The position numbers and the translations under genes were made by a program. Shown here in pieces: positions 5,178-61,805 of a stretch of DNA of 64,000 bases. The DNA comes from Eggerthellaceae bacterium. Its GTDB lineage: Bacteria; Actinomycetota; Coriobacteriia; Coriobacteriales; Eggerthellaceae. The stretch covers positions 1,813 to 65,812 of the forward strand of contig JAFRGA010000081.1 of NCBI GenBank assembly GCA_017434045.1, given 5' to 3'. Each line of letters opens with the position of its first letter. Position 1 is the first letter of the stretch. The notes under the pieces are model-generated. The model was not told the DNA's origin. It worked only from the letters and a program-made list of their open reading frames with translations, and did no database searches.

Positions 5178-5927
5178 ATGATTTCCGAATTTCCCTTGTT
5201 CGTCTTTACCGTGCTCACCGGCTTGTCCGCCGGCGCGTACGTCGGGGCGGCATTGTTTCCAAAAAAAGATGACGGCCCCAGGCCGTGGCTGTTTCCGCTC
5301 GTAGCGCTTATCTTGGTAGGAGTCGGTTCTCTCGCCGCAATCGGGCACCTGGGGCGCCCGGGCATGGTGATGAACGTGCTCAACAACCCCACCGCGTCTT
5401 TGACGTTGGAGGGCATAACCGCTGGCCTGCTCGCACTTGTCGCGGTCGTCGATCTGGCGTTGTGCGCTTCCAAGAAAAAGGCCAATCGCGCCGTGCGCAT
5501 CGCGGGAGCCATTGCGGGTGTTGTGTGCATGTGCGTTGTGACGTCGGCATATGTCTCATGCTACGGCAACCCGGCTTGGACTGCCGCCTGCACCTGGCCG
5601 CTGTTCGTGCTCGGCGATTTGGCTGCGGGCGCAGCGCTTTGGATGTGCTTTGCGGACATGCCCAACAAGCCGCTCGCCACTCTCGTTGCCGTTGCCGCTC
5701 TGCTTTTCGCCGTCGTTCTAGTCTGGCAAGCCGTGACGTTTGCTGGCCTCGGAAAGCCCTTCGGCTTCATCGTTTGCGGCGCCGTCTTCGCGATTGCGGG
5801 TGCCGTAGGCGGCTGGGCCACTGCGTCCACGCACTTGTGGAACACTGCAGCCAAGGTCGTGTTCGTGCTGCTGGCTGTGGCGCTTGTTGCTTCGCGCTAC
5901 GGCTTCTACCTAGTCAGCATTCTCTAG
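5178..5927 (+). CDS. DmsC-type integral membrane anchor subunit
   Basis: The roughly 250-aa protein is very hydrophobic, with about 8 predicted TM stretches. It is the last gene of the oxidoreductase operon. The ATG at 5178 follows GAAAGG. Confidence 0.7.
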   Translation: MISEFPLFVFTVLTGLSAGAYVGAALFPKKDDGPRPWLFPLVALILVGVGSLAAIGHLGRPGMVMNVLNNPTASLTLEGITAGLLALVAVVDLALCASKKKANRAVRIAGAIAGVVCMCVVTSAYVSCYGNPAWTAACTWPLFVLGDLAAGAALWMCFADMPNKPLATLVAVAALLFAVVLVWQAVTFAGLGKPFGFIVCGAVFAIAGAVGGWATASTHLWNTAAKVVFVLLAVALVASRYGFYLVSIL

Positions 5928-5940
5928 CCCTTTTTTCTCG

Positions 5941-5964
5941 GCGGCGAGGCCGAGGCCTCGCCGC
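5941..5964 (+). terminator. GC-rich hairpin (GCGGCGAGGCC-GA-GGCCTCGCCGC) followed by a T-run; likely operon terminator
   Basis: An 11-bp perfect stem lies 14 nt after the stop codon, followed by TCGCATGTTTTTA. Confidence 0.55.
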
Positions 5965-5984
5965 TCGCATGTTTTTACGAGAGA

Positions 5985-6021
5985 GCTCCGCCGCTGGCTG
6001 CGGGCCGGCCAGCGGCGGAGC
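5985..6021. repeat. second 14-bp-stem hairpin GCTCCGCCGCTGGC...GCCAGCGGCGGAGC
   Basis: Perfect inverted repeat read directly from the sequence. Its function is unknown; it could be a terminator or a REP-like element. Confidence 0.5.
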
Positions 6022-6155
6022 CAACTTATCGGCAGTTCTTTCGCTACACTACGGAATGCGTCACTGGGGGCAAGCCAAATGTCTCTAAGCGAAATGATAG
6101 GGAACATAAGGCTTGTCCCCAGTGACACATTGAACGGAATCAACAGGAGACGCTC

Positions 6156-36898: not shown

Positions 36899-38056
36899 TT
36901 AATCAGACAACGACTTATGCAGCCTCTCGAGCGGGGTGGGTCCGTCTTCGGGAAGCTGCTCGCGGCGGCTGATGTCGGATTCCACGATGCGGAAGATGGT
37001 GGCGGTGAGGGGCACGCCGACGAAGGCGCCAACGAAGCCGAACAGCGCGACGCCCAGCGTGACGCCGATGAGCGGCCACAAGCCGTTAAGGCCCACGTGC
37101 TTGCCGACGACACGCGGGTAGATGAAGTTCGCCTCGATCTGCTGCACGGCGAAGAACAAGATCAGGAAGACGATAGCTTGCTGCCATGAGGTCGCCAAAA
37201 TGATGATGGCGCCGAGAATGGCGCCGATGAGCGCGCCGATCATGGGGATGAGCGACATGACGGCGATGAGCGCACCCAGCATCAGCGCGCTGGGCATGCC
37301 GGCTATCGTGCAGGCGACAGTAACGAGGCTGCCGAAGATGACAGCCTCGAGCGCTGCGCCCACGAAGTACCCGCGGAAGCACTCGTCGGCGACCTTGGTT
37401 GCGCGCGAGAAGTTCTCGTCGGCGGATTTGCTGATGTAGGACCTGATCAGGAAATGGACTCCCTCCGAGAGCTTGTCTTTCTCGCCCAGGAACCAGAACG
37501 CGAGGATGATGCCCATGAACCAGGCGCCAATTGCGCCGACGAGGGATACGATCTGCGGCAGCGATTGCACGACGCCTGACTGCAGCCAGCCTGCGACGTC
37601 GTTCACGACCTGCTTCCAGTCGATGGATTTCAGCTGGCCGAGGAGCTGGGCGGGGATGAACGAGGCGATGACCTCGTTGCTCGTGACCGAATCGACGAAT
37701 CTCGGGGCTTCCTGCGCCAGCGTGATGATTGCCTCGACGAGGTGCGGGATCACCAGGATTCCCACGAACAGCAAGACGGCTACGGCGCATATGACGGACA
37801 GCGCGAGCGACAGCGCGCGATTGCGGGTGCCGTCGCCCGTGGGGCCGGGCAGCTTCCGCTCGAAGAAACGCAGGGGGATGTTGATGATGTAAGCGATGAC
37901 GAGCCCGGCGAAGATGGCGAGCATGCCGCCGAGCAGCAGGCCCACGAAGCCCTCGACCGCGCCCCAGTAATGGATGACCAGGAACACCACCAGCACGCTG
38001 ATTGCCAGCTTCATGCAAGTTTTCCAGCTTAGGTTGAAGTCGTGCTTGTCTCCCAT
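36899..38056 (-). CDS. AI-2E family transporter (PerM/UPF0118)
   Basis: It has about 8 TM segments and a typical C-terminal region (NFIYPRVVGKHVGLNGLWPLIGV). The start at ATG 38056 follows GAGAGAGG. Confidence 0.85.
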   Translation of the reverse strand: MGDKHDFNLSWKTCMKLAISVLVVFLVIHYWGAVEGFVGLLLGGMLAIFAGLVIAYIINIPLRFFERKLPGPTGDGTRNRALSLALSVICAVAVLLFVGILVIPHLVEAIITLAQEAPRFVDSVTSNEVIASFIPAQLLGQLKSIDWKQVVNDVAGWLQSGVVQSLPQIVSLVGAIGAWFMGIILAFWFLGEKDKLSEGVHFLIRSYISKSADENFSRATKVADECFRGYFVGAALEAVIFGSLVTVACTIAGMPSALMLGALIAVMSLIPMIGALIGAILGAIIILATSWQQAIVFLILFFAVQQIEANFIYPRVVGKHVGLNGLWPLIGVTLGVALFGFVGAFVGVPLTATIFRIVESDISRREQLPEDGPTPLERLHKSLSD

Positions 38057-38358
38057 GGGGCCTCTCTCGTTGTGGTCGGCACTCATTATATGGCTTAATG
38101 GCGGGCCAAGCTTGCAAGAACACGGATCCCAGCGTTTTGCGCAACCCAGAACCACTGGCTGGAAAACATGACATCGGGCGATTCAGGGCGTTCTTGGAGT
38201 CGATCGAAGGGGACTGTCCCCTTCGATTCGATTTAGGCGCACGCCCATGACAAACCACCGATGCTCCACCGTCATGCAGCCCGCGTATCCGCCAGGACAG
38301 CAGCCAGCGGTATTGCGTAAAATAGGTCGGAGCATGAAAACCGATCAAAGGAACCCAC

Positions 38359-39378
38359 ATGATGAAGGTCCCTTCATACCCCGATTCTTTCGAGGTGCTC
38401 TGCTTGCAGGCGGCCGACGACGGGCGCGGAGACGTGCTCTTCGGCGAGAGTCTCGCCCGCGCGCGCAAGGTGGCGCGGCCTTTCATGATCGGCGAGGAGT
38501 TTCCCAGCGTTTACCTGGAGTTCCCGCTCATAGGCAAGCCGTTTCTCGACGTTACATTGCTCTACGGAAAGCTGAAGCCCGGCATGCGCGTCGAGTCGGA
38601 GGCGGCCGAGGGCACCGGGGAGATGATCGATTGGTTTGCGGGCGCTTGCTCGGATATCGGCGGCATTTGCTGCGGGTTCGAGCTCGACGTGAAGGACCCG
38701 GCGCTCCCTCGCGCGGCTGTCCATTTCCAACCGCGCGGAAGGCTGGAGCTGGTGGAGCCGTTCTGTGCGGCAATCGGCGAGCCGGAGCGCGCCAAGCTTT
38801 ACCTCGACATGGCGGCACGCATGCCGGATGAATGGCAGCTGTCGTTTTTCGGCCTGTTCAGAGGGCGGCCAGGATCGCCCTTGCGCGTCTGCGGCTACCT
38901 CGGAGAAGTGAAGCAAGCATGCGTGGAAGATCCGGCCTACCTCGCCGGCGTGTTCGACCAGATCGGTTTCAAGGCTTACGACGACGTGATGCTTGCGCAA
39001 GTGCGGGAAATCATGGCAACTGCCTCCGGCGCAATCGATTTCCAGTTCGACGTGTATGACGACGGGCATCTCGGCGACACGTTCGCCCTCGACATCCAGT
39101 TCGGCATCGAGCAGCCCGCCGCCGTGTTCGCGTCCTTCACGGACGGCCCCGCCGCGCGAGCGATGGGAAAGCTTGAGGAGCTGGGTGCGGCCGACGGACG
39201 CTGGAAGCTCGGCGGAGACGCTGCGTTCGCACGCTCGATGAATGTGGAGCTCGAGGACGGGAGCACAGGCCGCTATGCGTTCACGCTCATGCCCCAGTGG
39301 GTGAAGGCGCGCTGGACCGCAGGAGCCCTGCAGCCCTCGAAGCTCTATCATTTCGCCAACGCCTGCCTGTTAGAATAA
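38359..39378 (+). CDS. hypothetical 339-aa protein, first gene of the RiPP operon; five evenly spaced strand-turn-strand segments (possible ABBA/PT-barrel-like fold)
   Basis: The ATG follows AAAGGA. No catalytic motif was recognised. Repeated beta-hairpin-like segments are listed in the findings. Confidence 0.65.
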   Translation: MMKVPSYPDSFEVLCLQAADDGRGDVLFGESLARARKVARPFMIGEEFPSVYLEFPLIGKPFLDVTLLYGKLKPGMRVESEAAEGTGEMIDWFAGACSDIGGICCGFELDVKDPALPRAAVHFQPRGRLELVEPFCAAIGEPERAKLYLDMAARMPDEWQLSFFGLFRGRPGSPLRVCGYLGEVKQACVEDPAYLAGVFDQIGFKAYDDVMLAQVREIMATASGAIDFQFDVYDDGHLGDTFALDIQFGIEQPAAVFASFTDGPAARAMGKLEELGAADGRWKLGGDAAFARSMNVELEDGSTGRYAFTLMPQWVKARWTAGALQPSKLYHFANACLLE

Positions 39379-39380
39379 TT

Positions 39381-39440
39381 GCAACAACAGCAACAACCGC
39401 AGCAGCTGCAACAACCGCAGCAGCTGCAACAACCGCAACT
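39381..39440. repeat. 18-bp tandem repeat, ~3.3 units (two perfect copies of GCAGCAGCTGCAACAACC at 39399-39416 and 39417-39434)
   Basis: Read directly. It lies between the stop of the 339-aa gene and the rSAM start. Confidence 0.9.
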
Positions 39441-39499
39441 CGAGAGGCAATTCATGCGAACGCGGCCCCGTGGCGATGACCAAACGAAAGGGACAGAAG

Positions 39500-40894
39500 A
39501 TGACTGCAGAAGAGAGCAAGACGACTGAGCGGGCTGAATCCAGAACCGCCGGCGAGGCGGGCTGGCATGTCTCGCGCTACAACCTCTGCGCGAAGGTGCC
39601 CGACACGAAGATGGTCGCAATCGCCAACCTGTTCAAGGGCAACTGCGCCGAGTACACCCCCATCGAAATGTACCTGCTGAGCGTGCTGGAAGAGCTCGAC
39701 GAGAACCATCCCGTCATCGAGCGCTTCGCCAAGCGAGGCATCATCTGCAAATTCGACGAGCTGGCGGCCCTCGACACGATAGGCCGGGCCGGCTGCGGGG
39801 TTGCAGGCGGAGTCGGCCTCACCATCTGCCCGACGATGGGCTGCAATTTCGATTGCCCCTACTGCTTCGAAGACCATGGCCGCGGGAAGATGAGCCCCGA
39901 GGTGCAGGACGATATCGTGGCGCTCGCCGAGCGCATGCTCGAGACAAGCGGATCCAAGAACCTGTCCGTGACATGGTTCGGCGGCGAGCCGCTACTTGCG
40001 CCTAACGTCATCGACTCGCTTTCAAAGAGGCTTATGGCCCTTGTCGAAGAACGCGGCGGGGAGTATTCGGCGGGCATTATCACGAACGGGTACTTGTTCA
40101 CTCAAGAGATCGTCGACATGCTGGAACGCAACAAAGTCAACAGCTGCCAAGTGACTATCGACGGGCTCGGCGCCACTCACGACGCAACGCGCCGGCTCGC
40201 CAACGGCGGGCCCACTTTCGAGCGCATCACGGGCAACCTGCGCAATCTCAAGCTTCCGTTCAACGTGCACATCCGCCATAACGTGCATGAGGGGAATATG
40301 GCCGAGATAGACGAGCTCAAGGCATTCATCGAGAAGCTGGCGGAAGAATCGGGCAACGACCTCATGTACTACCCTGCACCGGTAACCGGCAGCCAGACCG
40401 CCGACGAGCGCGGCGAGCAGGTCGGGCTTCTGTGCGGCGCGGATGCGAGCGATGTGGGGATACGTCAAGAGGCAAGGCGGTTCCATGTCGGCCGCGGCAC
40501 CTATTGCGGGGCGCATCACCTCTGGGCCGTTGGCATAGATGACCAGGGGCGGCTCCAGAAATGCTGGGAAGCCGTCGACAAGCCGGACATCTCCTTCGGC
40601 ACCGCGCACGATTGGGACCCCAAGAACCCCCTCGAGACCGCGTCGAACCCCGACAACCTCACCATGTACCTGAACACGGCCTCGCCCGTGCCCGACGAGG
40701 AATGCCGTGAGTGCATATGGCTGCCCATGTGCGTGGGCGGCTGCCCCCATAAGCGCCTGTTCGGGGGGAGGCAATGCGTTGCGTTCAAGGACGAGCCCGA
40801 GAAGTACGTGCTTGCGCTGCATGCCCGCATCGGCGAGGACAAGGAGTCCGAAGAGCCCGAGGAGCCTGAGGGGTCCGAAGGGTCCGAGGCGTAG
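39500..40894 (+). CDS. radical SAM/SPASM-domain peptide maturase
   Basis: It has the SAM cluster motif CNFDCPYC and the C-terminal SPASM Cys motif CRECIWLPMCVGGCPHKR, plus additional Cys (YCGAHH, KCWE). The ATG at 39500 lies 6 nt after GAAAGGGA. Alternative starts are at 39470 and 39476. Confidence 0.88.
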   Translation: MTAEESKTTERAESRTAGEAGWHVSRYNLCAKVPDTKMVAIANLFKGNCAEYTPIEMYLLSVLEELDENHPVIERFAKRGIICKFDELAALDTIGRAGCGVAGGVGLTICPTMGCNFDCPYCFEDHGRGKMSPEVQDDIVALAERMLETSGSKNLSVTWFGGEPLLAPNVIDSLSKRLMALVEERGGEYSAGIITNGYLFTQEIVDMLERNKVNSCQVTIDGLGATHDATRRLANGGPTFERITGNLRNLKLPFNVHIRHNVHEGNMAEIDELKAFIEKLAEESGNDLMYYPAPVTGSQTADERGEQVGLLCGADASDVGIRQEARRFHVGRGTYCGAHHLWAVGIDDQGRLQKCWEAVDKPDISFGTAHDWDPKNPLETASNPDNLTMYLNTASPVPDEECRECIWLPMCVGGCPHKRLFGGRQCVAFKDEPEKYVLALHARIGEDKESEEPEEPEGSEGSEA

Positions 40895-41058: not shown

Positions 41059-41568
41059 ATGGCAGACGCCTCTAGCTCGATATTCAACAAGAAGGCCACG
41101 GAGAAGCTACGCAGCCCCGATGACCTCGACAAGTACGTACGCGTGACAAACCCAAGCGTGTGGGTGGTGCTCGCCGCATGCCTTTGCCTGATCTTCGCCC
41201 TGCTTGCTTGGGGCTTCTTCGGGGCCGTGACCACCAACGTCGCGAAAACCGGCGTGGCGATTGACGGGAAGGTGATGTGCTTCTTGTCGTCCGACGAAAT
41301 CGCCGGGGTCGACCCGGGCGATATCGGCAATGTGAGCGGGGAGCGCATGCATGTCGCAGAAGTCTCCGCCGTCCCGGTTTCACCTGGTGAAGCGAAAAAG
41401 ATCTTGAAGGACGACTACCTGGTGAGCGCGCTTGTGAGCGGCGATTGGGCGTATGTCGTCACGTTCGAGGGCGACACGTCGGAGCTTTCCGAGGGCGTCC
41501 CGCTCAAAGTCAACATCACGACGAGCCGCGTATCGCCCATTTCGCTGATACTGAGGAACTGGGGCTAG
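41059..41568 (+). CDS. NHLM-type bacteriocin system secretion protein (short HlyD-like, single TM)
   Basis: The N-terminus (FNKKATEKLRSPDDLDKYVRVTNPSVWVVLAACLCLIFALLAWGFFG) matches the conserved start of this family. The gene sits immediately upstream of the paired ABC exporters. Confidence 0.72.
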   Translation: MADASSSIFNKKATEKLRSPDDLDKYVRVTNPSVWVVLAACLCLIFALLAWGFFGAVTTNVAKTGVAIDGKVMCFLSSDEIAGVDPGDIGNVSGERMHVAEVSAVPVSPGEAKKILKDDYLVSALVSGDWAYVVTFEGDTSELSEGVPLKVNITTSRVSPISLILRNWG

Positions 41569-41571
41569 TGG

Positions 41572-43731
41572 ATGGGCAAGGTCGCTAAGGTCCCACAAGT
41601 CATGCAGATGGAGGCGCTCGAATGCGGCGCCGCCTGCCTGACGATGATCCTGGCTTACTACGGGCGGTGGGTGCCGCTCGAGAAGGTGCGGGCCGACTGC
41701 GGTGTGTCGCGCGATGGCTCGAAGGCGTCCAACGTGCTCAAGGCCGCGCGCAGCTACGGGCTGGCCGCCAAGGGCATGACGTATTCCGCCTCGGCCATAC
41801 GCAGGAAGGGCAAGTTCCCCTGCATCATTTTCTGGAACTTCAACCACTTCGTGGTGCTCGCCGGGTTCAAGGGCAAAAACGCCGTGATCAACGATCCCGC
41901 CCGCGGCGAGATCAAAGTGCCCATGAAGGAGTTCGAGGAAAGCTTCACGGGCGTCGCCCTCACGTTCGAGAAGACCGACGCCTTCGAAGAGGGCGGAACC
42001 AAGCCCAGCACGATAAAGTATGCGAAGAAGCGCCTCGAAGGGTTGGGGGCGGCTATCGCGTTCGTCATGCTGACGGCTGCCATCACCTCGTTCGTGACGG
42101 TGATCGACACCTCGATGGGCCAGGTGTTCCTCGACCAGATTCTCAGCGGCAACAACCGTGACTGGCTTATGCCGCTCTTAGGCCTCATGGTTGTGCTCGC
42201 GTCCATCATCGGGCTCGTCTCGGTGCTCAACGCCGTGTACCTCGTGCGCATCCAGGGCAAGATCGCGGTGGTGAGCTCGTCGCGCTTCATGCGCCACCTG
42301 CTCCACTTGCCGGTGGAGTTCTATTCGCAGCGCATGGTAGGCGACCTGCAGCAGCGCCAATCGGCGAACGAGACCATCGCCTTCGCGCTCGTGGGCCAGC
42401 TCGCGCCAATCCTCATTAACGGGGTCATGCTGATCATCTACCTCGTGATCATGGTGCAGTACAGCTTGCTGCTCACGGTCGTAGGCCTGTTCACGGTGGT
42501 CATAAACGCCCTGCTCGCGCGCTACATCTCGAAGAAGCGCGTGAACATCTCGCGCTCTGCGACGGCAACTGCCGGCAAGCTCTACGCCACCACCGTGAGC
42601 GGCATCGAGATGATCGAGACCATCAAGGCTTCCGGCGCCGAGGTCGGCTACTTCGGACGCTGGGCCGGCTACCAGGCGTCGGTGAACGAGTCCACCGCAC
42701 GCACGACGCTGTTGAACGAGTACCTCGGCGCCGTGCCGGCCGCCCTCACGCAGCTCACCAACGTTATCGTGCTCGTGCTGGGCATCTGGCTGATCGTCGA
42801 GGGCAGGTTCACCCCTGGTGCACTGCTCGTGTTCACGGGCTTCCTCGCTTCGTTCATGATGCCGGTCACGCAGATCATCAACCTGGGGCAGACCGTCCAG
42901 GAGATGCAGACGCAGATGGAGCGCGTGGAAGACGTCATGCGCTACGAGGTGGACGTTCCGGAGGAGCCGGAGGACACGCAGGGCGTGCGGACTTCTGCGG
43001 GGCGCGAGAAACTGTACGGGCAAGTTGACCTGGAAGGCGTGACCTTCGGCTACTCGCCGTTGGAGCCGCCGCTCATCAAGGACTTCAACCTGCACCTGGA
43101 GCCGGGTAGCTGGGTCGCGCTCGTGGGCAGCTCGGGCTGCGGGAAATCCACCATCGCGAAGCTGGTCTCGGGGCTCTACAAGCCTTGGGAAGGCGAGGTC
43201 CGCTTCGACGACACGCCCTTGAGCGAGATACCGCGGCCGATTTTGCGCGGGTCGCTGGCCGTCGTGGACCAGGACATCATCACGTTCGACGACTCGGTTT
43301 CCGACAACGTGAAGCTGTGGGACCGCTCGGTCGAGGACTTCGAAGTCATCCTGGCCTGCCGCGATGCGGAAATCAGCGATATCATCAACGAGCGCGAGGG
43401 CGGTTACTCGAGCCGTATCCTGCCTGGCGGGCGCAACTACTCGGGCGGGCAGCTGCAGCGCCTCGAGATCGCACGCGCGCTTGCGCAGGACCCCACGATC
43501 ATCATTTTGGACGAGGCCACGAGCGCGCTCGACGCGCAGACTGAGGACGCGGTCATTCGCCGCATCCGCGACAGGGGTATCACCTGCATAGTGGTGGCGC
43601 ACCGCCTTTCGACCATCCGCGACTGCGACGAGATCATCGTGCTCGAGGATGGCCAGGTGGTCGAGCGCGGCACGCACGACGAGCTGATTGCCGCCGACGG
43701 CGCTTACGCAGACCTTGTGAGGAACGACTAG
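41572..43731 (+). CDS. bacteriocin export ABC transporter with N-terminal C39 peptidase domain (peptidase/permease/ATPase)
   Basis: It has the C39 catalytic Cys context QMEALECGAACLTMILAYYG, six TM segments, Walker A GSSGCGKST and the signature YSGGQLQR. Confidence 0.92.
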   Translation: MGKVAKVPQVMQMEALECGAACLTMILAYYGRWVPLEKVRADCGVSRDGSKASNVLKAARSYGLAAKGMTYSASAIRRKGKFPCIIFWNFNHFVVLAGFKGKNAVINDPARGEIKVPMKEFEESFTGVALTFEKTDAFEEGGTKPSTIKYAKKRLEGLGAAIAFVMLTAAITSFVTVIDTSMGQVFLDQILSGNNRDWLMPLLGLMVVLASIIGLVSVLNAVYLVRIQGKIAVVSSSRFMRHLLHLPVEFYSQRMVGDLQQRQSANETIAFALVGQLAPILINGVMLIIYLVIMVQYSLLLTVVGLFTVVINALLARYISKKRVNISRSATATAGKLYATTVSGIEMIETIKASGAEVGYFGRWAGYQASVNESTARTTLLNEYLGAVPAALTQLTNVIVLVLGIWLIVEGRFTPGALLVFTGFLASFMMPVTQIINLGQTVQEMQTQMERVEDVMRYEVDVPEEPEDTQGVRTSAGREKLYGQVDLEGVTFGYSPLEPPLIKDFNLHLEPGSWVALVGSSGCGKSTIAKLVSGLYKPWEGEVRFDDTPLSEIPRPILRGSLAVVDQDIITFDDSVSDNVKLWDRSVEDFEVILACRDAEISDIINEREGGYSSRILPGGRNYSGGQLQRLEIARALAQDPTIIILDEATSALDAQTEDAVIRRIRDRGITCIVVAHRLSTIRDCDEIIVLEDGQVVERGTHDELIAADGAYADLVRND

Positions 43732-43732
43732 C

Positions 43733-45916
43733 ATGAGTTGGATGGAATCGCAAATAGACGAGCGCGCGCGGCTAGACTCCGCGATGATCGAGCGTGCGTA
43801 CGCGGAGCTTGCATCCAGCGTCATCAACTCCAACAGCGCTCCGCAGATCGGGTTGGACGACATCGAGCAGAACGACGGCGCCGTGAAGGCCTGCCTGAAG
43901 TTCATCCGGGTGGAGCCCGGGGAGGTGCCCGAGGGCATCACGGACAAGAACGAGCGCATCGACTGGCTCTGCCGGCCCTCGGGGACGATGCACCGTATAG
44001 TTCAGCTCGACGAGGGATGGTACAAGCGCGCGTTCGGCGCCCTGCTCGGCCATCTCGACACCGGCGATGCGGTGGCCCTCTTGCCCCGTGGCATGGGCGG
44101 TTACTACTTCCTGGAGCCGGGAAGCGGTCGGAAGGTGAGGGTGGACGAGAAAGTGGCGTCGCACATAGCCTCCGATGCCGTGTTCTTCTACAAGCCCTTG
44201 CCCGCGCGTCCGCTCAAGGTCCGGGACCTGGCCTTATTCATCCACGGCGCCTTCGAGAAAACCGATTACCTGCTCGTGATCGCGGCGGCGCTCGCCGTCA
44301 CGCTCATCGGGCTGTTCCCCGCGTGGGCGAACGAGATCGCGTTCGGTATCGTGGCGCCCTCCAAGCAGGCCAGCCTCATCGCGCCGATTGGCGCGCTGCT
44401 CGCAGGCGTGGCGATTTCGACCGCCCTCATCAGCGCGTGCCGCAATATCGTGATGGCGCGTGTGTCCATGAAGCTCGACGTCACGTGCGAGGCGGCTGCC
44501 TTTGCGCGCGTCCTCTCGCTTCCCACGTCGGTGTTCAAGCAGTATGCGGCGGGCGATTTGGCCAACCGCGTGGCGAACATCACGCTGCTTTCGCGGACGC
44601 TCACCTCGATCTCGCTGGGGTCGGGGTTGACCTCGCTCTTCTCGCTTGTGTACATCATCCAGATCGGCTGCTATGCGCCGCCTCTGGCGGTTCCCGCATT
44701 TGTGATCATCGCCGTGGAGGCCGCGCTGACCATCGTCGTCACGAACCTCACGGCGCGTTACGCGAAAGCCACGATGGAGGCTTCCGCGAAGCTCTCCGGT
44801 ACGGTCACCGCGCTTCTGAACGGCATCCAGAAGATCAAGCTCGCCGGCGCGGAGGAGCGCGCTTTCGCGAAGTGGGCGCACGGTTATGCGCCGTACGCGC
44901 GCGCCACCTACAACAGGCCTATTATCGTCCGCGCCCTGCCGGCGTTCGTGACGCTCGTAAGCCTGTTCGGTACCATCGTCATCTACTACTTTGCCGGAAC
45001 AGCCCAGATCTCCGTCGCGAACTACATGGCCTTCAACGTCGCGTTCGGCCAGGCGACGGCCGCCATCATGGCGCTTTCCCAAGTTGCAAGCGAAGCGGCC
45101 GAGATCAGGCCCATGATCGAGCTGGCCGCGCCCATCTTGGAAGCCGAGCCCGAGATCGCCGAGGACAAGCCGAGCGTCGAGGACCTGACGGGCTCCATCG
45201 AGGTCACGGGCCTCACGTTCCGCTACAGCGAGAACAGCCCCTACATCGTGAAGGACCTCTCGTTCACCGTGCGTCCTGGCGAGTACGTGGCGCTCGTGGG
45301 CAAGAGCGGTTGCGGCAAGTCCACCATCATGCGCCTACTGCTTGGGTTTGAGCAGCCCGAACGAGGCACCGTGTTCTATGGACAGTATGACGTGAGCAAG
45401 GTTGACCTTCGGTCGCTGCGGCAGCGCATCGGCGTGGTCATGCAGGACGGCAAGCTGTTCATGGGCGACATCGCGTCCAACATCACCATCTCGACGCCGA
45501 CGGCCACCCTCGACGATGCATGGGCAGCTGCCGAGCTGGCAGGCATTGCGGACGACATCCGCAAGATGCCCATGGGCATGCAGACGCTCGTGACGGAAGG
45601 TTCGGGCGGCATCTCCGGCGGGCAGAGGCAGCGTATCATGATTGCCCGCGCCATCTGCGGGAATCGCAAGATCTTGATGTTCGACGAGGCCACGAGCGCG
45701 CTCGACAACAAGACGCAGAAGCATGTGTCCGATTCGCTCGACTCGCTGGATTGCACGCGCGTCGTGGTGGCCCACCGGCTCTCCACCGTGCGCCATTGCG
45801 ACCGCATCCTGGTCGTGGACGGCGGGCGCATCGCCGAGGAAGGCACCTACGACGAGCTCATTGCCATGGATGGCCTGTTCGCCGAGCTCGTTGCTCGCCA
45901 GCGGCTGGATACGTAG
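43733..45916 (+). CDS. partner bacteriocin export ABC transporter permease/ATPase (no peptidase Cys; N-terminal accessory domain)
   Basis: It has Walker A GKSGCGKST and the signature ISGGQRQR. The start is 1 nt after the upstream stop. The N-terminal ~150 aa lack the C39 Cys. Confidence 0.9.
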   Translation: MSWMESQIDERARLDSAMIERAYAELASSVINSNSAPQIGLDDIEQNDGAVKACLKFIRVEPGEVPEGITDKNERIDWLCRPSGTMHRIVQLDEGWYKRAFGALLGHLDTGDAVALLPRGMGGYYFLEPGSGRKVRVDEKVASHIASDAVFFYKPLPARPLKVRDLALFIHGAFEKTDYLLVIAAALAVTLIGLFPAWANEIAFGIVAPSKQASLIAPIGALLAGVAISTALISACRNIVMARVSMKLDVTCEAAAFARVLSLPTSVFKQYAAGDLANRVANITLLSRTLTSISLGSGLTSLFSLVYIIQIGCYAPPLAVPAFVIIAVEAALTIVVTNLTARYAKATMEASAKLSGTVTALLNGIQKIKLAGAEERAFAKWAHGYAPYARATYNRPIIVRALPAFVTLVSLFGTIVIYYFAGTAQISVANYMAFNVAFGQATAAIMALSQVASEAAEIRPMIELAAPILEAEPEIAEDKPSVEDLTGSIEVTGLTFRYSENSPYIVKDLSFTVRPGEYVALVGKSGCGKSTIMRLLLGFEQPERGTVFYGQYDVSKVDLRSLRQRIGVVMQDGKLFMGDIASNITISTPTATLDDAWAAAELAGIADDIRKMPMGMQTLVTEGSGGISGGQRQRIMIARAICGNRKILMFDEATSALDNKTQKHVSDSLDSLDCTRVVVAHRLSTVRHCDRILVVDGGRIAEEGTYDELIAMDGLFAELVARQRLDT

Positions 45917-45934: not shown

Positions 45935-46504
45935 CTATCGGCTGCTTGCCAAGTGGGACATCGTCATCGTGAACACGATGGGCGCCCAAGCGGCGTACTT
46001 GCGTGGCTCGGCCTGGAGCTCTGCGGCAAGCGTTTCGAAATCAATCCAGCGGACTTCGCTCGCCTCGGCGGGGTCGGGGTCTATCGTTCCTTCGCAGCGG
46101 CCGACGATCACGTGGTCGTATTCGTATTCGCACAGCCCGTTGTCGAACTCGGCGCGGTAGACGAACGCGCAGATCTCGTGCAGATCAATCGCCTCGCACC
46201 TGAGCTCTTCGTGCACACGCCGATAGGCGGCCTCTATGGTCTCCTCGCCCAGGCGCGGGTGGGAGCAGCACGAGTTGGCCCAAAGCCCGCCCGAGTGGTA
46301 TTTCATCATCGAGCGCAACGCGAGCAGCAGCTCCGGCCCGTTCTCCCCTTCGCGTACGAGCACGACCGAGAACGCGCGGTGGAGGAGCCCTTCCACGTGC
46401 GCCTGCAGTTTCGTGGCGGCGCCGGTTTCGCGGTCGAGTCCATCGACGAGAATCAACATGTCATCGCGAGCGGGATCAGCCGCCATTTTCTCGTCAAGTT
46501 CCAT
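45935..46504 (-). CDS. idi: isopentenyl-diphosphate delta-isomerase, type 1 (Nudix fold)
   Basis: Its motifs align with those of E. coli Idi: LHRAFSV, KYHSGGLWANSCCSHPRLGE and CEYEYDHV. GGAGG RBS. Confidence 0.85.
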   Translation of the reverse strand: MELDEKMAADPARDDMLILVDGLDRETGAATKLQAHVEGLLHRAFSVVLVREGENGPELLLALRSMMKYHSGGLWANSCCSHPRLGEETIEAAYRRVHEELRCEAIDLHEICAFVYRAEFDNGLCEYEYDHVIVGRCEGTIDPDPAEASEVRWIDFETLAAELQAEPRKYAAWAPIVFTMTMSHLASSR

Positions 46505-46586: not shown

Positions 46587-46781
46587 CTACTTTAGACTGA
46601 GGCAAGGAAGATAGTCTTCACAAAAGCCTTTACACCAGCCACCTCCACCGCCCGATACGGCCTCCAGCTCAGCGTCGGAGAGGCTGTATCCCTCCTCCTT
46701 GGCGAGTGTCAGGATGTCTTTCGACGTCTTGCAGGCTTTCACTTTCTCTTGCAGTTCAGGTGAGAGGTCCTCGAAGTTCAT
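46587..46781 (-). CDS. Nif11-like leader peptide RiPP precursor (64 aa), core GGGWCKGFCEDYLPCLSLK
   Basis: The protein reads MNFEDLSPELQEKVKACKTSKDILTLAKEEGYSLSDAELEAVSGG|GGGWCKGFCEDYLPCLSLK. The ATG at 46781 follows GGAGG. It has a double-Gly cleavage motif and a 3-Cys core. Confidence 0.8.
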   Translation of the reverse strand: MNFEDLSPELQEKVKACKTSKDILTLAKEEGYSLSDAELEAVSGGGGGWCKGFCEDYLPCLSLK

Positions 46782-47186
46782 TTCCGCCTCCGTTCCATGC
46801 GTTGACGCTTCCCTCATGTTTCATTGTACGAGAGAACATGCGCTGTCATTTCAAAAGACTTGCTTTTATGCAGTCGATTTGGCGTTTTTTGATAGGCTGA
46901 GGCTCGACGAATAGCGCTGGGTGGGGCTTCGCCTGTTTGGCAGAGATCGAAAGAGTGCCAGCAGGCGAGGGGCAACAGAAGATGGCAAAAATTTGCGGAA
47001 CGGTACGATTTTGGGGATGCGGACGTTTTTGGACCAGTGGCCTTTGCCACTTAGCCCAGCCGCAATTAGCGCGATTCTCGACGGCCCCTTCTCGGAATCG
47101 GCCGATGACGGTATTCTGAGCATAGACCGACGGATACGTGTCCTAGAAACAAGCGGTTGAGGTCGGGCTTGATGATGTTGGGACAG

Positions 47187-47336
47187 GTTTCGAACGGTTT
47201 CGGCCACTTGCCGAGTGCGTTTCCGAAGGTTGAAGCGGTTTCGTATGGCTTGGCCGCTTGCCGAGTGTGTTCGAAGGCAAGGCGGATTACGGATTGTTTC
47301 GACCGCGTGCCGCACGTGTTTCGCAGGTCGGGCAAG
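47187..47336. repeat. ~50-58-bp degenerate tandem repeats (GTTTCG..GGCC.CTTGCCGAGTG.GTT..CGAAGG)
   Basis: Two full units plus one partial unit were read directly in the 607-bp divergent intergenic region between the precursor and the hydrolase genes. Confidence 0.7.
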
Positions 47337-47388
47337 ATGTCGCCTTCGCGTCGTGAGAGTAAGAACAAGAACCGAAAGAGGCCTGTTC

Positions 47389-48198
47389 ATGAACGAGAGA
47401 CGCTACACCACCGACAAAGGGACCATCCGCTATTGGATAAGCGATCCCATGCCCGGGGCGAAGACGCTCGTGTTCCTGCCAGGGCTGACGGCCGATCACC
47501 ATCTGTTCGACAAGCAGGTCGAGTACTTCGAGCCGCGCTGCAACATGTTCGTGTGGGACGCGCCGGGCCATGCGGCGTCGAGGCCGTTCGAGCTGTCGTT
47601 CTCGCTTGCCGACAAAGCGCGCTGGCTTCATGAAATCCTTGCAGTCGAAGGCGTTGAGCAGCCCGTTCTCGTCGGTCAGTCCATGGGCGGCTACGTGAGC
47701 CAGGCTTTCATGCAGTGCTTTCCCGGTGAGACAAAGGGATTCGTCTGCATCGACTCGGCGCCGCTGCAGCGCGAGTACTACACTGCCGCAGAGCTCTGGC
47801 TGCTGAAGCGAATGACCCCGGTGTATAGGCTTTATCCTCACAAGGCGCTCGTGCGCGATGGCGTGAAAGGTTGCGCCACCACGGAGTACGGGCAGGCGCT
47901 GATGAAGGCCACCTGGGATGAGTCCGTGTATGACCACGAGTATTTCTGCGCGCTCGCAGGGCACGGGTTTGGCATTCTTGCGGAGGCGATCGAGCTCGAG
48001 CTTCCGTATGAAATCGATTGTCCTACGCTGCTCATCTGCGGGGAGAAGGATGCTGCGGGTTCAACGCGTCGCTACAACCGCGAGTGGACGAAGAAGACCG
48101 GGCTTCCGCTTGTGTGGATTGAGGGCGCGGGACACAACTCGAACACTGACCGACCCGACGAGGTGAACGCGCTCATCGCCGAATTCGCTGGTGTGTGA
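47389..48198 (+). CDS. alpha/beta-fold hydrolase
   Basis: It has the nucleophile elbow GQSMGG, the N-terminal LVFLPGLTADHHLF and a C-terminal GAGHNSN. The ATG at 47389 follows GAAAGAGG. Confidence 0.85.
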   Translation: MNERRYTTDKGTIRYWISDPMPGAKTLVFLPGLTADHHLFDKQVEYFEPRCNMFVWDAPGHAASRPFELSFSLADKARWLHEILAVEGVEQPVLVGQSMGGYVSQAFMQCFPGETKGFVCIDSAPLQREYYTAAELWLLKRMTPVYRLYPHKALVRDGVKGCATTEYGQALMKATWDESVYDHEYFCALAGHGFGILAEAIELELPYEIDCPTLLICGEKDAAGSTRRYNREWTKKTGLPLVWIEGAGHNSNTDRPDEVNALIAEFAGV

Positions 48199-48318
48199 TG
48201 CGTCGGCACTGGATGGTTTCAAGCTTTCCAGCATCTCCTTGAGCAACGGAGACGGTTGCGGGATGGCGGGGCGGGTATACAATACGGTTACTATTTCACC
48301 AACAGATCGGGGGATCCC

Positions 48319-49425
48319 ATGACGTATTTGGGCGAGGAAATCGGGAAGCTGGGCTTTGGACTCATGCGGTTGCCGCGACTGGAGGACGGCAGCTTCGACC
48401 ACGAGCTGATCTGCCAGATGGTCGATCGCTTCCTGGAGGCGGGCTTCACATACTTCGACACCGCCTGGATTTACAGCGGAAGCGAAGAGGAAATCGCGAA
48501 GGCGCTCGTGCAGCGCCATCCGCGGGAGAGCTATCAGCTGGCCACGAAGGGCATCTCGTGGATCGGCTGCAAGACGCCCGAAGACGCGCAGGCGCATTTC
48601 CACCAGTCGCTCGAGCGCACGGGCGCGGGTTACTTTGACTTCTACCTGCTGCACATGACGGGCGGCCAGCGCACGCAAGTGTTCGAGCAGTTCGGTATGT
48701 GGGATTTCGTCGCGCAGAAGAAAGCGGAGGGCCTCATCCGCCACGTGGGCTTCTCGCATCACGGGACGGCCGAAGAGCTCGACGAGATCCTGACCGCCCA
48801 TCCCGAGGTCGAGTTCGTGCAGCTGCAGGTGAACTACCTCGATTGGGAGAATCCCCTCAACCAGAGCCGCGCCTGCATGGAGGCGGCAGCCAAACATAAC
48901 GTGCCCGTCGTGGTCATGGAGCCCCTGCGGGGCGGCCTTCTGGCCGATCCCCCTGCAAGCGTGGCCAAAGTGTTCGCCGAGGCCGAGCCCAAGCAATCGC
49001 CTGCCGCATGGGGCCTTCAGTTCGTGGCGAACCAGCCGAACATCATCACGGTGCTGTCGGGCATGAACGCGATGGAGCAGCTGGAAGACAACATCGCCGC
49101 GCTGAGCGGCTTCAAGGGTTTTGCGCCTGGGCAAGCCGAGGTCATCGAAGCGGCGCTCGCCGAGTTTGACAAGTTCGATCTCGTTCCGTGCACCGGCTGC
49201 GATTACTGCGCGAAGGTTTGCCCGGAGAACATCGGCATCCGCGGGTCGTTCATAGCCATGAACGCTGACATCATGTTCGGGCGCCACGTGCAGGAGTGGC
49301 TCAACTGGGGCGGCGGCAAGAACCCGCCGAGCGCCTGCATCGAATGCCACGCCTGCGAAGAGGCCTGCCCGCAGGGTATCTCCATCGTCGAGGAGCTGAA
49401 GCGCGCCGTGCCCCTCATCGGGTAG
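48319..49425 (+). CDS. aldo/keto reductase with C-terminal 4Fe-4S ferredoxin-like domain
   Basis: It has the AKR N-terminus (LGFGLMRLP, FTYFDTAWIY) and C-terminal Cys clusters CTGCDYCAKVCP and CIECHACEEACP. Confidence 0.85.
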   Translation: MTYLGEEIGKLGFGLMRLPRLEDGSFDHELICQMVDRFLEAGFTYFDTAWIYSGSEEEIAKALVQRHPRESYQLATKGISWIGCKTPEDAQAHFHQSLERTGAGYFDFYLLHMTGGQRTQVFEQFGMWDFVAQKKAEGLIRHVGFSHHGTAEELDEILTAHPEVEFVQLQVNYLDWENPLNQSRACMEAAAKHNVPVVVMEPLRGGLLADPPASVAKVFAEAEPKQSPAAWGLQFVANQPNIITVLSGMNAMEQLEDNIAALSGFKGFAPGQAEVIEAALAEFDKFDLVPCTGCDYCAKVCPENIGIRGSFIAMNADIMFGRHVQEWLNWGGGKNPPSACIECHACEEACPQGISIVEELKRAVPLIG

Positions 49426-51828: not shown

Positions 51829-54210
<2,382 letters not shown>

Positions 54211-54605: not shown

Positions 54606-56657
<2,052 letters not shown>

Positions 56658-56805
56658 GAGTTGTCCCCTCGCATCGGCCTGTGCAATATCGTAGTGTTTA
56701 GTCGAGATTCTTGCTAGTGCCGATACGAATAAAAGCAATCATGCAGCCATGAAAAAACCGGGCTGCGCGCTCTTCGCACAACCCGGCTCCCTTCCGCGAG
56801 AAAGG

Positions 56806-61499: not shown

Positions 61500-61805
61500 T
61501 TACCAGCCGTTGTCCACCATTTTCTCCAGTATTTTCTTTGCTTCGTATTCTCTTCGCAAGTCAAACACGTATGACGTATACACTAACCTGTCTTCTACTC
61601 CAATCTCCCTTGCATATTTTTGGGCGCCTTCCAGATCGTCGTAATCAAACGTGCCCAGGACATCGCCGGTTTCATCGTCGATGACTTCAAATTTGTAGGT
61701 GCCATGATACAGGTGGACGACGCCGCCGCTGACGCTGCTCAGCTCTTCGTCGCTTAACGGTGTTATATTCGGATCTTCCTGTCCTTTATTCACGTGAATT
61801 GCCAT
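61500..61805 (-). CDS. 101-aa protein with N-terminal double-glycine leader-like peptide (LSDEELSSVSGG)
   Basis: The protein reads MAIHVNKGQEDPNITPLSDEELSSVSGG|VVHLYHGTYKFEV.... AAGGGGG RBS. The leader motif closely matches that of the precursor at 46587-46781. Confidence 0.65.
   Translation of the reverse strand: MAIHVNKGQEDPNITPLSDEELSSVSGGVVHLYHGTYKFEVIDDETGDVLGTFDYDDLEGAQKYAREIGVEDRLVYTSYVFDLRREYEAKKILEKMVDNGW

Follow-up and report, generated by a model that had tools for sequence, protein, structure and literature searches.

The gene considered here lies at positions 38359–39378 on the + strand of a 64,000-nucleotide (nt) stretch of DNA from an Eggerthellaceae bacterium (GenBank assembly GCA_017434045.1, contig JAFRGA010000081.1, positions 1,813 to 65,812), which is referred to as the window and which supplies all coordinates given without a locus handle. 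Its product of 339 amino acids (aa) is on record, with exactly the same sequence, as MBQ6391460.1, a "hypothetical protein" of an Eggerthellaceae metagenome-assembled genome (MAG); both the open reading frame and the translation quoted in the initial annotation were reproduced. The protein is probably a soluble, cytoplasmic and Mg2+-dependent prenyltransferase of the ABBA (PT-barrel) fold that lipidates a Nif11-type precursor peptide encoded 7 kb away. The locus has the genes of a pathway for a peptide that is made by ribosomes and then modified after translation (RiPP), including a radical S-adenosylmethionine (rSAM) enzyme and ATP-binding cassette (ABC) exporters:

38294–38323, + strand: weak sigma-70-like promoter match (AGGACA-18-TAAAAT) upstream of the prenyltransferase gene; consensus match only
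38359–39378, + strand: predicted ABBA (PT-barrel) peptide prenyltransferase gene, 339 aa, from open reading frame and translation
39390–39437, no strand assigned: 18-bp perfect tandem repeat (GCAACAACCGCAGCAGCT x2.7), filling most of the 91 nt that separate the prenyltransferase and rSAM genes and overlapping a minus-strand hairpin-like match
39470–40894, + strand: radical SAM/SPASM peptide maturase, with CNFDCPYC at residues 125–132
41059–41568, + strand: short HlyD-like membrane protein, 169 aa, matching only positions 1–60 of TIGR03794 (NHLM HlyD)
41572–43731, + strand: NHLM-type bacteriocin export ABC transporter with an N-terminal C39 peptidase (TIGR03796, 937.6 bits; cut-off 853.3)
43733–45916, + strand: second NHLM export ABC permease/ATPase subunit (TIGR03797, 702 bits, just below the cut-off of 709.4)
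45935–46504, − strand: type 1 isopentenyl-diphosphate delta-isomerase, idi (NF002995, 148.5 bits; cut-off 127)
46587–46817, − strand: Nif11-type precursor peptide (PF07862; TIGR03798, 32.7 bits; cut-off 32.3)

The prenyltransferase gene had been described as the first of its operon, and the surroundings agree with this. An AI-2E transporter gene (36899–38155) lies upstream in divergent orientation, while the rSAM gene starts 91 nt 3′ of the prenyltransferase gene on the same strand, and no + strand terminator-like site was found between the two. The operon continues with the short HlyD-like protein and the two NHLM ABC exporters, and it converges on an operon of the opposite strand comprising the Nif11 precursor gene and, 82 nt downstream of it on the same strand, idi; the presence of idi in the locus, which had also been proposed, is borne out by its score above the family cut-off. 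The region has two sigma-70-like sites, compared with an expectation of 1.6, which makes the match upstream of the prenyltransferase gene non-significant by itself. The rSAM protein is closest to the TIGR04463, Clo7bot, CefB and PapB families and falls below the cut-offs of all of them. The short form of the HlyD-like protein is kept in relatives (10 loci, median 169 aa) and is therefore no truncation artefact. The C39-ABC transporter is expected to serve as both double-glycine leader peptidase and exporter. Neither the window cluster nor those related loci that were scanned or had precomputed Pfam calls yielded LanM or LanBC genes, and PatA/PatG-type proteases were absent among the scanned cluster genes.

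The fold of the protein was predicted with AlphaFold2 on the basis of 31 homologues, which yielded a model with a mean predicted local distance difference test (pLDDT) value of 95.2, a predicted template modelling (pTM) score of 0.92 and every residue at 70 or above. Five strand pairs (50–56/64–69, 104–110/120–124, 161–166/175–181, 226–232/238–247 and 303–320/328–337) are separated by one to three helices each, and one additional short strand (290–297) precedes the last pair. The initial annotation had picked out by eye five hairpin-like segments, VYLEFPL..LDVTLLYG, ICCGFELDV..AAVHFQP, WQLSFFGLF..LRVCGYL, AIDFQFDVY..FALDIQFG and RYAFTLMPQWVKARW..KLYHFA, and since the modelled strand pairs coincide with all five at exactly these sites, its description is confirmed. 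A by-eye sequence pattern has no chance level, and the fold search therefore constitutes an independent test. In a Foldseek search of the PDB with the model, ranks 1–42 were occupied exclusively by ABBA/DMATS-type prenyltransferases, including DMATS1, 5-DMATS SCO7467, AnaPT, AtaPT, PriB, FunA, AmbP1, CymD, CloQ, IptA, MpnD, NotF and KgpF. Ranks 1–40 had probabilities of 0.97–1.00 and E values of 3e-6 to 7.5e-3, and ranks 41–42 (KgpF and CdpNPT) had probabilities of 0.84–0.89. From rank 43 onward, non-prenyltransferase matches reached a probability of at most 0.16, and a second KgpF chain stood at rank 48 (0.35). Template modelling (TM) scores of the 42 prenyltransferase matches were mostly 0.42–0.56 (KgpF 0.33), with identities of 7–16%. 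A search of BFVD was uninformative, its only matches being a few cyanophage proteins without characterisation. The PT-barrel first suspected from the sequence pattern is thus what the model and the search both point to, and the family, which is unannotated, is predicted to fold in this way.

In sequence searches the protein has no family match in Pfam or NCBIfam, and neither it nor nine distant relatives matched any Pfam prenyltransferase family, Trp_DMAT and PTase_Orf2 included, at E<=10; the sole Pfam match among these ten proteins, DUF7889 for P0255 (E 0.22), is a chance one. Searches of PDB sequences by phmmer and with the family profiles A1 and A2 gave chance matches only (USP18, GST and TonB). 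The initial annotation had recognised no catalytic motif, and the lack of matches in Pfam, NCBIfam and PDB sequences, profiles included, bears this out. There are 523 homologues at E<=1e-3, the best 120 of which are all unnamed or "hypothetical", lack Pfam domains and are 61–99% identical to the 339-aa protein; the family comprises 355 clusters at 50% identity.

Conservation within the family was assessed on 83 members, down to 21% identity, which also make up profile A2. The conserved positions are E54, D64, E108/D110, R170, R176, Q229/D231, D245, D279/R281, K316, K328 and Y330, among which D110, R170, D279 and R281 are invariant and E54, D64, R176, Q229, K316, K328 and Y330 are kept in at least 93% of members. 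No strand pair of the five is without a conserved residue, and all residues conserved in at least 90% of members, a basic, tyrosine and acidic set, lie on predicted strands or adjoining loops; among the invariant residues and those kept in at least 93%, only R170, D279 and R281 fall outside the predicted strands. R170, R176, K316, K328, Y330 and R281, all on or beside strands, are at least 96% conserved. An (N/D)DxxD motif is absent from the protein according to a motif search of its sequence. In ABBA enzymes the diphosphate is bound by basic residues and tyrosines and not by a DDxxD motif (PMC7973389), a rule with which the basic/Tyr part of the conserved set agrees. The whole set appears to suit an ABBA active site, which has to bind the diphosphate and Mg2+, shield the carbocation and provide a general base on strand 1, and the alternation of conserved residues along the modelled strands suggests that they point inward into the barrel.

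DMATS-type enzymes come closest to the protein in fold, and the MppC-like family comes closest in sequence. MppC from Moorena producens is an ABBA-type prenyltransferase that geranylates Trp82 (at C5) of the lanthipeptide precursor MppE (PMC12715784). It acts only when the Nif11-type leader is attached to MppE, was assayed with Mg2+ and does not accept free L-tryptophan (Trp) as a substrate; MppC-like enzymes bind the whole Nif11 leader, and the work describing this leader-dependent prenylation of Trp in Nif11 precursors dates from late 2025 (PMC12715784). The MppC sequence is absent from the supplement of that report (PMC12715784) and the exact MppE sequence was not found in the protein collection searched; a candidate for MppC was reached via MppE homologues. 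The Moorena producens locus found in this way contains LanM, an 87%-identical precursor (core LCWRWST) and, adjoining the precursor, a 375-aa protein without any Pfam domain. Alignment of profile A2 with the 375-aa protein by hhalign gave a probability of 90.3% (E 1.5e-6), and alignment with profile A4, built from the family of this protein (38 members, all "hypothetical"), gave 98.15% (E 6.5e-14) over 301 columns. Two other proteins of the Moorena locus, of 289 and 354 aa, were tried as relatives, and neither matches the window family profile. A phmmer-type search from the 375-aa protein collected 38 proteins, all with a best BLASTP identity of at least 29%, whereas its hhalign identity to the window family is about 15%; judged from sequence, the relationship between the two families is detectable at profile level only. 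The invariant residues of the Moorena family, E60, D71, E130, D132, R206, R212, E269, K342, K354 and Y356, align with E54, D64, E108, D110, R170, R176, D245, K316, K328 and Y330 of the window protein, respectively. In addition, the structure model of the Moorena family is an ABBA barrel (pLDDT 90.2) with the same PDB neighbours as the window protein, and its members adjoin LanM or LanB/C and Nif11 genes, a lanthionine synthetase/Nif11 setting similar to that reported for MppC-like enzymes (PMC12715784). The 375-aa protein thus appears to belong to the MppC family or to be the MppC orthologue. In its closest orthologues a predicted surface helix bears W321-x3-F325, and the leader-binding residues of MppC are Trp336/Phe340 (PMC12715784).

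The initial annotation had compared the protein with the peptide prenyltransferases of the cyanobactin F family. The profile comparison with cyanobactin enzymes has been made, and PagF, PirF and LimF were not matched: hhalign of A2 against these three gave a probability of 0.2 with a shallow template of 3 sequences, PTase_Orf2 likewise gave no Pfam match, and KgpF ranks only 41st by fold. Because this profile fails to match, the cyanobactin F family is not the close relative. What stood is the assignment as a peptide prenyltransferase, through the ABBA fold, the MppC-like homology and the RiPP neighbours.

With regard to the likely substrate, the true start of the precursor gene is probably the ATG at 46781, which has GGAGG 5 nt upstream and gives a 64-aa precursor, MNFEDLSPELQEKVKACKTSKDILTLAKEEGYSLSDAELEAVSGG followed by the core GGGWCKGFCEDYLPCLSLK. 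The leader ends in LSDAELEAVSGG, after which the sequence continues with GGGWC...; the MppE leader ends in LSDSELEAVAGG before the core ACWRWSG and has the L(X)4L...GG arrangement in common with it. A survey of substrates covered 31 precursors with a double-glycine (GG) leader that adjoin family members. Trp occurs in the core of 28 of the 31 and within the first 7 core residues of 25, as against about 9% expected by chance, an enrichment that amounts to no formal probability because of the kinship among the sequences. Cysteine (Cys) is likewise found in 28 of the 31 cores, the overall composition being 5.9% Trp and 9.4% Cys, and W-x(0-2)-C occurs in 17; examples are WCAMVCNDD..., WGCNEQNFNC..., SSWSCDSNIC..., KVKWGCVVKL, RCWDVCISTWA and GGGWCWSDYWC.... 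Trp is the sole aromatic residue conserved in these cores, and it is also the acceptor both in the characterised relative, MppC, and in the nearest structural neighbours. By analogy the acceptor is probably Trp, and Cys is what the rSAM/SPASM partner would naturally act on.

Relatives of the gene were collected by a scan of GTDB species genomes, which yielded 66 loci, almost all from rumen or gut Coriobacteriia MAGs, with a few from Clostridia and one from a cultured strain, Olsenella intestinalis KCTC 25379. The following counts refer to the 65 loci with a full main copy and to features within 10 kb:

Tandem paralogue (25–31% identical): 24 of 65 loci
GG-leader precursors: 14 of 65 loci
Homologous rSAM: 13 of 65 loci
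C39-ABC exporter: 12 of 65 loci
Short HlyD-like gene: 10 of 65 loci
idi: 4 of 65 loci

Flanks of 5 kb or more on either side are available for 28 loci, the well-flanked ones, and in 14 of these at least one rSAM, C39-ABC or GG-precursor gene lies within 10 kb. Linkage to idi takes several forms: it lies 48 nt upstream of the prenyltransferase gene on the same strand in L023, on one strand with a DUF7005 gene, the precursor and the prenyltransferase in L035, and 0.8 kb downstream in L058, and all three of these idi genes pass the NCBIfam cut-off. Compact clusters were also found for distant members (23–30% identity), where Nif11 precursors, two or three paralogues, one or two rSAM/SPASM genes and exporters stand together. 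The genes are Nif11 precursor and two prenyltransferases in L070, rSAM, precursor and two or three prenyltransferases in L071 and L072, and HlyD-like, C39-ABC, ABC, rSAM/SPASM, two Nif11 precursors, two prenyltransferases, second rSAM/SPASM and a further prenyltransferase in L073–75. The prenyltransferase gene directly follows Nif11 precursor genes on the same strand in L035, L059, L070 and L073–75, and lies within a few genes of one in L071 and L072. The suggestion that idi and the locus point to a peptide prenyltransferase is thereby strengthened, as four loci have idi within the operon or adjoining it and relatives down to about 23% identity stand directly beside Nif11 precursors, rSAM/SPASM maturases and NHLM exporters.

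A second, divergent copy (25–31% identical) adjoins the main copy in L014 (8922–10004), L049 (8967–10001), L019 (1620–2606), L055 (11022–12062) and about 20 other loci, and the distant clusters L071 and L073–75 have up to three family copies, as against one in the window, where no second family member or DUF7005 gene was found elsewhere. The tandem paralogue retains the conserved Glu/Asp/Arg/Lys/Tyr set and is, to judge from these residues, probably active. Where two or three tandem paralogues occur, each copy probably serves a different position or precursor. In L049, the locus of Olsenella intestinalis KCTC 25379 (scaffold1, 1041188–1062207), an rSAM gene, the paralogue and the prenyltransferase gene form a triad, and a precursor and an exporter are absent within 10 kb, which suggests that the pathway genes are dispersed in these genomes.

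Several other genes were observed in these neighbourhoods. A DUF7005 protein with an HExxH-like motif (YHECAHV / LEHECTHY) is encoded beside the prenyltransferase in 8 loci (L045, 3147–4031, as well as L012, L026, L030, L033, L035, L043 and L046); it also occurs in the Moorena mpp-like lanthipeptide cluster (L076, 18364–19533), with 30% identity over 227 aa, and may be a further component of prenylated-peptide pathways. Just past the precursor gene, the window encodes an alpha/beta hydrolase (47215–48198) and an aldo-keto reductase-4Fe-4S ferredoxin fusion (48256–49425), and L058 has a 47%-identical hydrolase (5615–6148) in the vicinity of its prenyltransferase and idi genes. Two hybrid histidine kinase/response-regulator proteins (51829–54210 and 54606–56738, both on the − strand) are found 5–10 kb past the cluster. 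Another type of double-glycine peptide, of about 95–101 aa, is encoded in the window (61500–61805, − strand), in L030 (6737–7018) and in L035 (5445–5732); these peptides (...SGG|VVHLYHGTYKF..., ...GG|FIYHDEGD...) have a long C-terminal part without Cys or Trp and are possibly unrelated bacteriocin-like or immunity-type proteins.

The RiPPs whose prenylation has been characterised are the cyanobactins, the ComX-type pheromones and a few of the lanthipeptides and lasso peptides, and ABBA prenyltransferases are known from the cyanobactin, MppC-type lanthipeptide and lasso peptide pathways. The MppC-like and window families share a predicted ABBA barrel with the same PDB neighbours, profile homology at 98% with aligned invariant Glu, Asp, Arg, Lys and Tyr residues, the lack of a Pfam model, nearby DUF7005 genes, and substrates in which a Nif11-type leader ending in L(X)4L...GG is followed by a short Trp/Cys core. 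They differ in that identity is only about 15%, the macrocyclase partner is LanM/LanBC for the MppC-like enzymes but rSAM/SPASM for the window family, and the hosts are Cyanobacteria, Myxococcota and Pseudomonadota on the one hand, and anaerobic gut or rumen Coriobacteriia with some Clostridia on the other. In addition, the window family often has two or three tandem paralogues and is accompanied by idi instead of a longer-chain donor context, and the leader is 45 aa long in the window but 77 aa in MppE.

The DMATS-type enzymes DMATS1 (8day), 5-DMATS SCO7467 (6zs0), IptA, PriB, CymD and AtaPT are the best structural matches (E 3e-6 to 1e-3, TM 0.42–0.56). Like the window protein, they have five alpha-beta-beta-alpha units and no DDxxD motif, and their acceptors are indole or Tyr; unlike it, they show no sequence relation to it detectable in Pfam at E<=10, act on free amino acids or small molecules, and have genes that are not accompanied by those for precursor peptides, rSAM enzymes or peptide exporters. 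The cyanobactin F family (PagF, PirF, LimF, KgpF and the inactive PatF) resembles the window protein in its ABBA fold and, with Glu51 of PagF on the first strand, has a residue comparable to E54; its substrates are ribosomal peptides as well. These cyanobacterial enzymes, however, act independently of a leader, after PatA/PatG proteolysis and macrocyclisation, whereas the window cluster has C39-ABC cleavage and export and no such proteases. Mg2+ is bound by PagF (PMC7973389). Finally, the ComQ/ComX and PalQ systems of Bacillus and Paenibacillus also prenylate Trp in a small exported ribosomal peptide of Gram-positive bacteria, but they lack an rSAM partner, and a ComX-like signalling peptide is a possible functional analogy for the window product. 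ComQ and PalQ are all-helical enzymes of the isoprenyl-diphosphate-synthase type and not beta-barrels. One report describes PalQ as different from the cyanobactin-type prenyltransferases (PMC10853753).

Taken together, fold, homology, conservation, gene context and precursor survey make it quite likely that the 339-aa protein is a leader-dependent peptide prenyltransferase, probably directed at Trp, of a new branch coupled to radical-SAM chemistry in anaerobic gut bacteria. In the pathway proposed, the precursor would be made with its leader, for which the Nif11 leader ending in L(X)4L and a double glycine is seen in the sequence, and the enzyme would recognise this leader as MppC does. A prenyl cation from dimethylallyl diphosphate (DMAPP), whose supply would be boosted by the idi co-transcribed with the precursor gene, would be transferred to a core side chain, the likeliest being the indole of the Trp just past the cleavage site. 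Within the barrel lumen, R170, R176, K316, K328 and Y330 would hold the diphosphate, E54 on strand 1 would act as the base, and D64/D110 would bind Mg2+. The rSAM/SPASM enzyme would cross-link Cys residues by thioether-type chemistry, before or after prenylation, and the C39-ABC exporter would cut after the double glycine and secrete the lipidated peptide.

A number of observations weigh against this reading. The activity of all family members is a predicted one, and the assignment of the 339-aa protein, which has no sequence match to a curated family or a solved structure, rests on a predicted fold (TM about 0.42–0.56, 7–16% identity) together with profile-profile homology. The inward orientation of the conserved residues was read from strand alternation, and the leader-binding Trp336/Phe340 map to W321/F325 only with an unexplained offset of 15, for which no upstream alternative start was found in L076. 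The window core offers Tyr, Phe and three Cys as other acceptors. Moreover, idi is linked in only 4 of the 65 loci, a RiPP gene is missing within 10 kb in 14 of the 28 well-flanked loci, and nothing is recognisable in 8 of the 28, as in L067, where the gene lies among unrelated genes. Even the triads of rSAM, paralogue and prenyltransferase lack a nearby precursor, and a search for hidden precursors beside these triads and beside "orphan" copies found none within 2.5 kb. Identities of 60–70% across Coriobacteriia families are unusually high and also fit a housekeeping enzyme better than a tailoring one.

Part of this would fit the main alternative, a genuine ABBA prenyltransferase acting on a small aromatic such as free tryptophan, indole or a quinone-type gut metabolite, with the RiPP genes only loosely linked. 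The best structural neighbours (DMATS1, 5-DMATS SCO7467, IptA, CymD and PriB) are indeed enzymes of free Trp or Tyr, sequence conservation across families is very high, RiPP genes are missing within 10 kb in every second well-flanked locus, and idi would be equally useful for any prenylation. However, the window gene heads an rSAM/exporter operon, relatives repeatedly lie on the same strand after Nif11 precursors or near one, and the RiPP association persists at 23–30% identity, where synteny by descent is unlikely. Trp is, moreover, strongly enriched in the neighbouring cores, and the sole sequence-related family is the peptide-specific and leader-dependent MppC-like one, for which free L-Trp is not a substrate (PMC12715784). 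A small-molecule enzyme is accordingly considered improbable.

It is very improbable that the barrel performs other chemistry, such as S-prenylation of Cys with subsequent rSAM-driven cyclisation of the prenyl group, or the transfer of another diphosphate-activated group. Such a role would be compatible with Cys being as conserved as Trp in the cores (with W-x(0-2)-C in 17 of 31), with an rSAM partner below the cut-offs of all curated rSAM families, and with the C-, O-, N- and S-prenylation performed by ABBA enzymes (PMC7973389). Nothing, however, speaks specifically in its favour: every solved structural neighbour is a prenyltransferase, the characterised homologue modifies Trp, and idi indicates ordinary C5 chemistry.

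Precedent also exists for a catalytically dead barrel in a RiPP cluster, since PatF of the patellamide pathway is an inactive ABBA homologue (PATF, 4bg2, among the cyanobactin relatives). A leader-binding chaperone or scaffold of this kind, presenting the precursor to the rSAM enzyme or the exporter, would accord with the binding of the whole Nif11 leader by MppC-like enzymes (PMC12715784) and with the failure of family scans, none of them aimed at it, to find a RiPP recognition element in the rSAM protein; it is nevertheless the least likely explanation, as the residues conserved in at least 90% of the 83 members are the catalytic ones, charged or Tyr on barrel strands and not in surface patches, these positions do not vary in the active MppC-like family and are kept in the tandem paralogue, and linkage to idi is sensible only if a prenyl donor is consumed.

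The reading as a leader-dependent peptide prenyltransferase thus remains preferred, and a broader extension of it may be stated, which at present we regard as rather unlikely. The clusters might make a new RiPP class of short peptides, cross-linked by radical SAM enzymes, prenylated on Trp or Cys and secreted by rumen and gut Coriobacteriia and Clostridia, with the prenyltransferase acting largely in trans on scattered precursors; the products might be ComX-like pheromones, or rSAM action on the prenylated residue might give a new cross-link. Action in trans would account for the abundance of highly conserved copies that stand alone.

The novelty lies in a separate, large and unannotated branch of 355 clusters that is coupled to rSAM/SPASM enzymes instead of lanthionine synthetases, often has two or three paralogues, and occurs in anaerobic gut and rumen bacteria. 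No report of an ABBA prenyltransferase with an rSAM/SPASM enzyme, in ranthipeptides or in Coriobacteriia was found in the part of the literature that could be searched. If the assignment is true, leader-dependent ABBA prenylation would extend to radical-SAM-modified peptides and also to Actinobacteria and Clostridia that live as strict anaerobes in gut and rumen, whose lipidated peptides are essentially unexplored. Hundreds of "hypothetical proteins" would gain a name and a testable function, and a set of naturally paired enzymes and precursors, in clusters with as many as three paralogues, would become available for peptide lipidation biocatalysis, with Olsenella intestinalis KCTC 25379 as a cultured entry point. 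The MppC-like and window families would then join in one superfamily with a common catalytic constellation.

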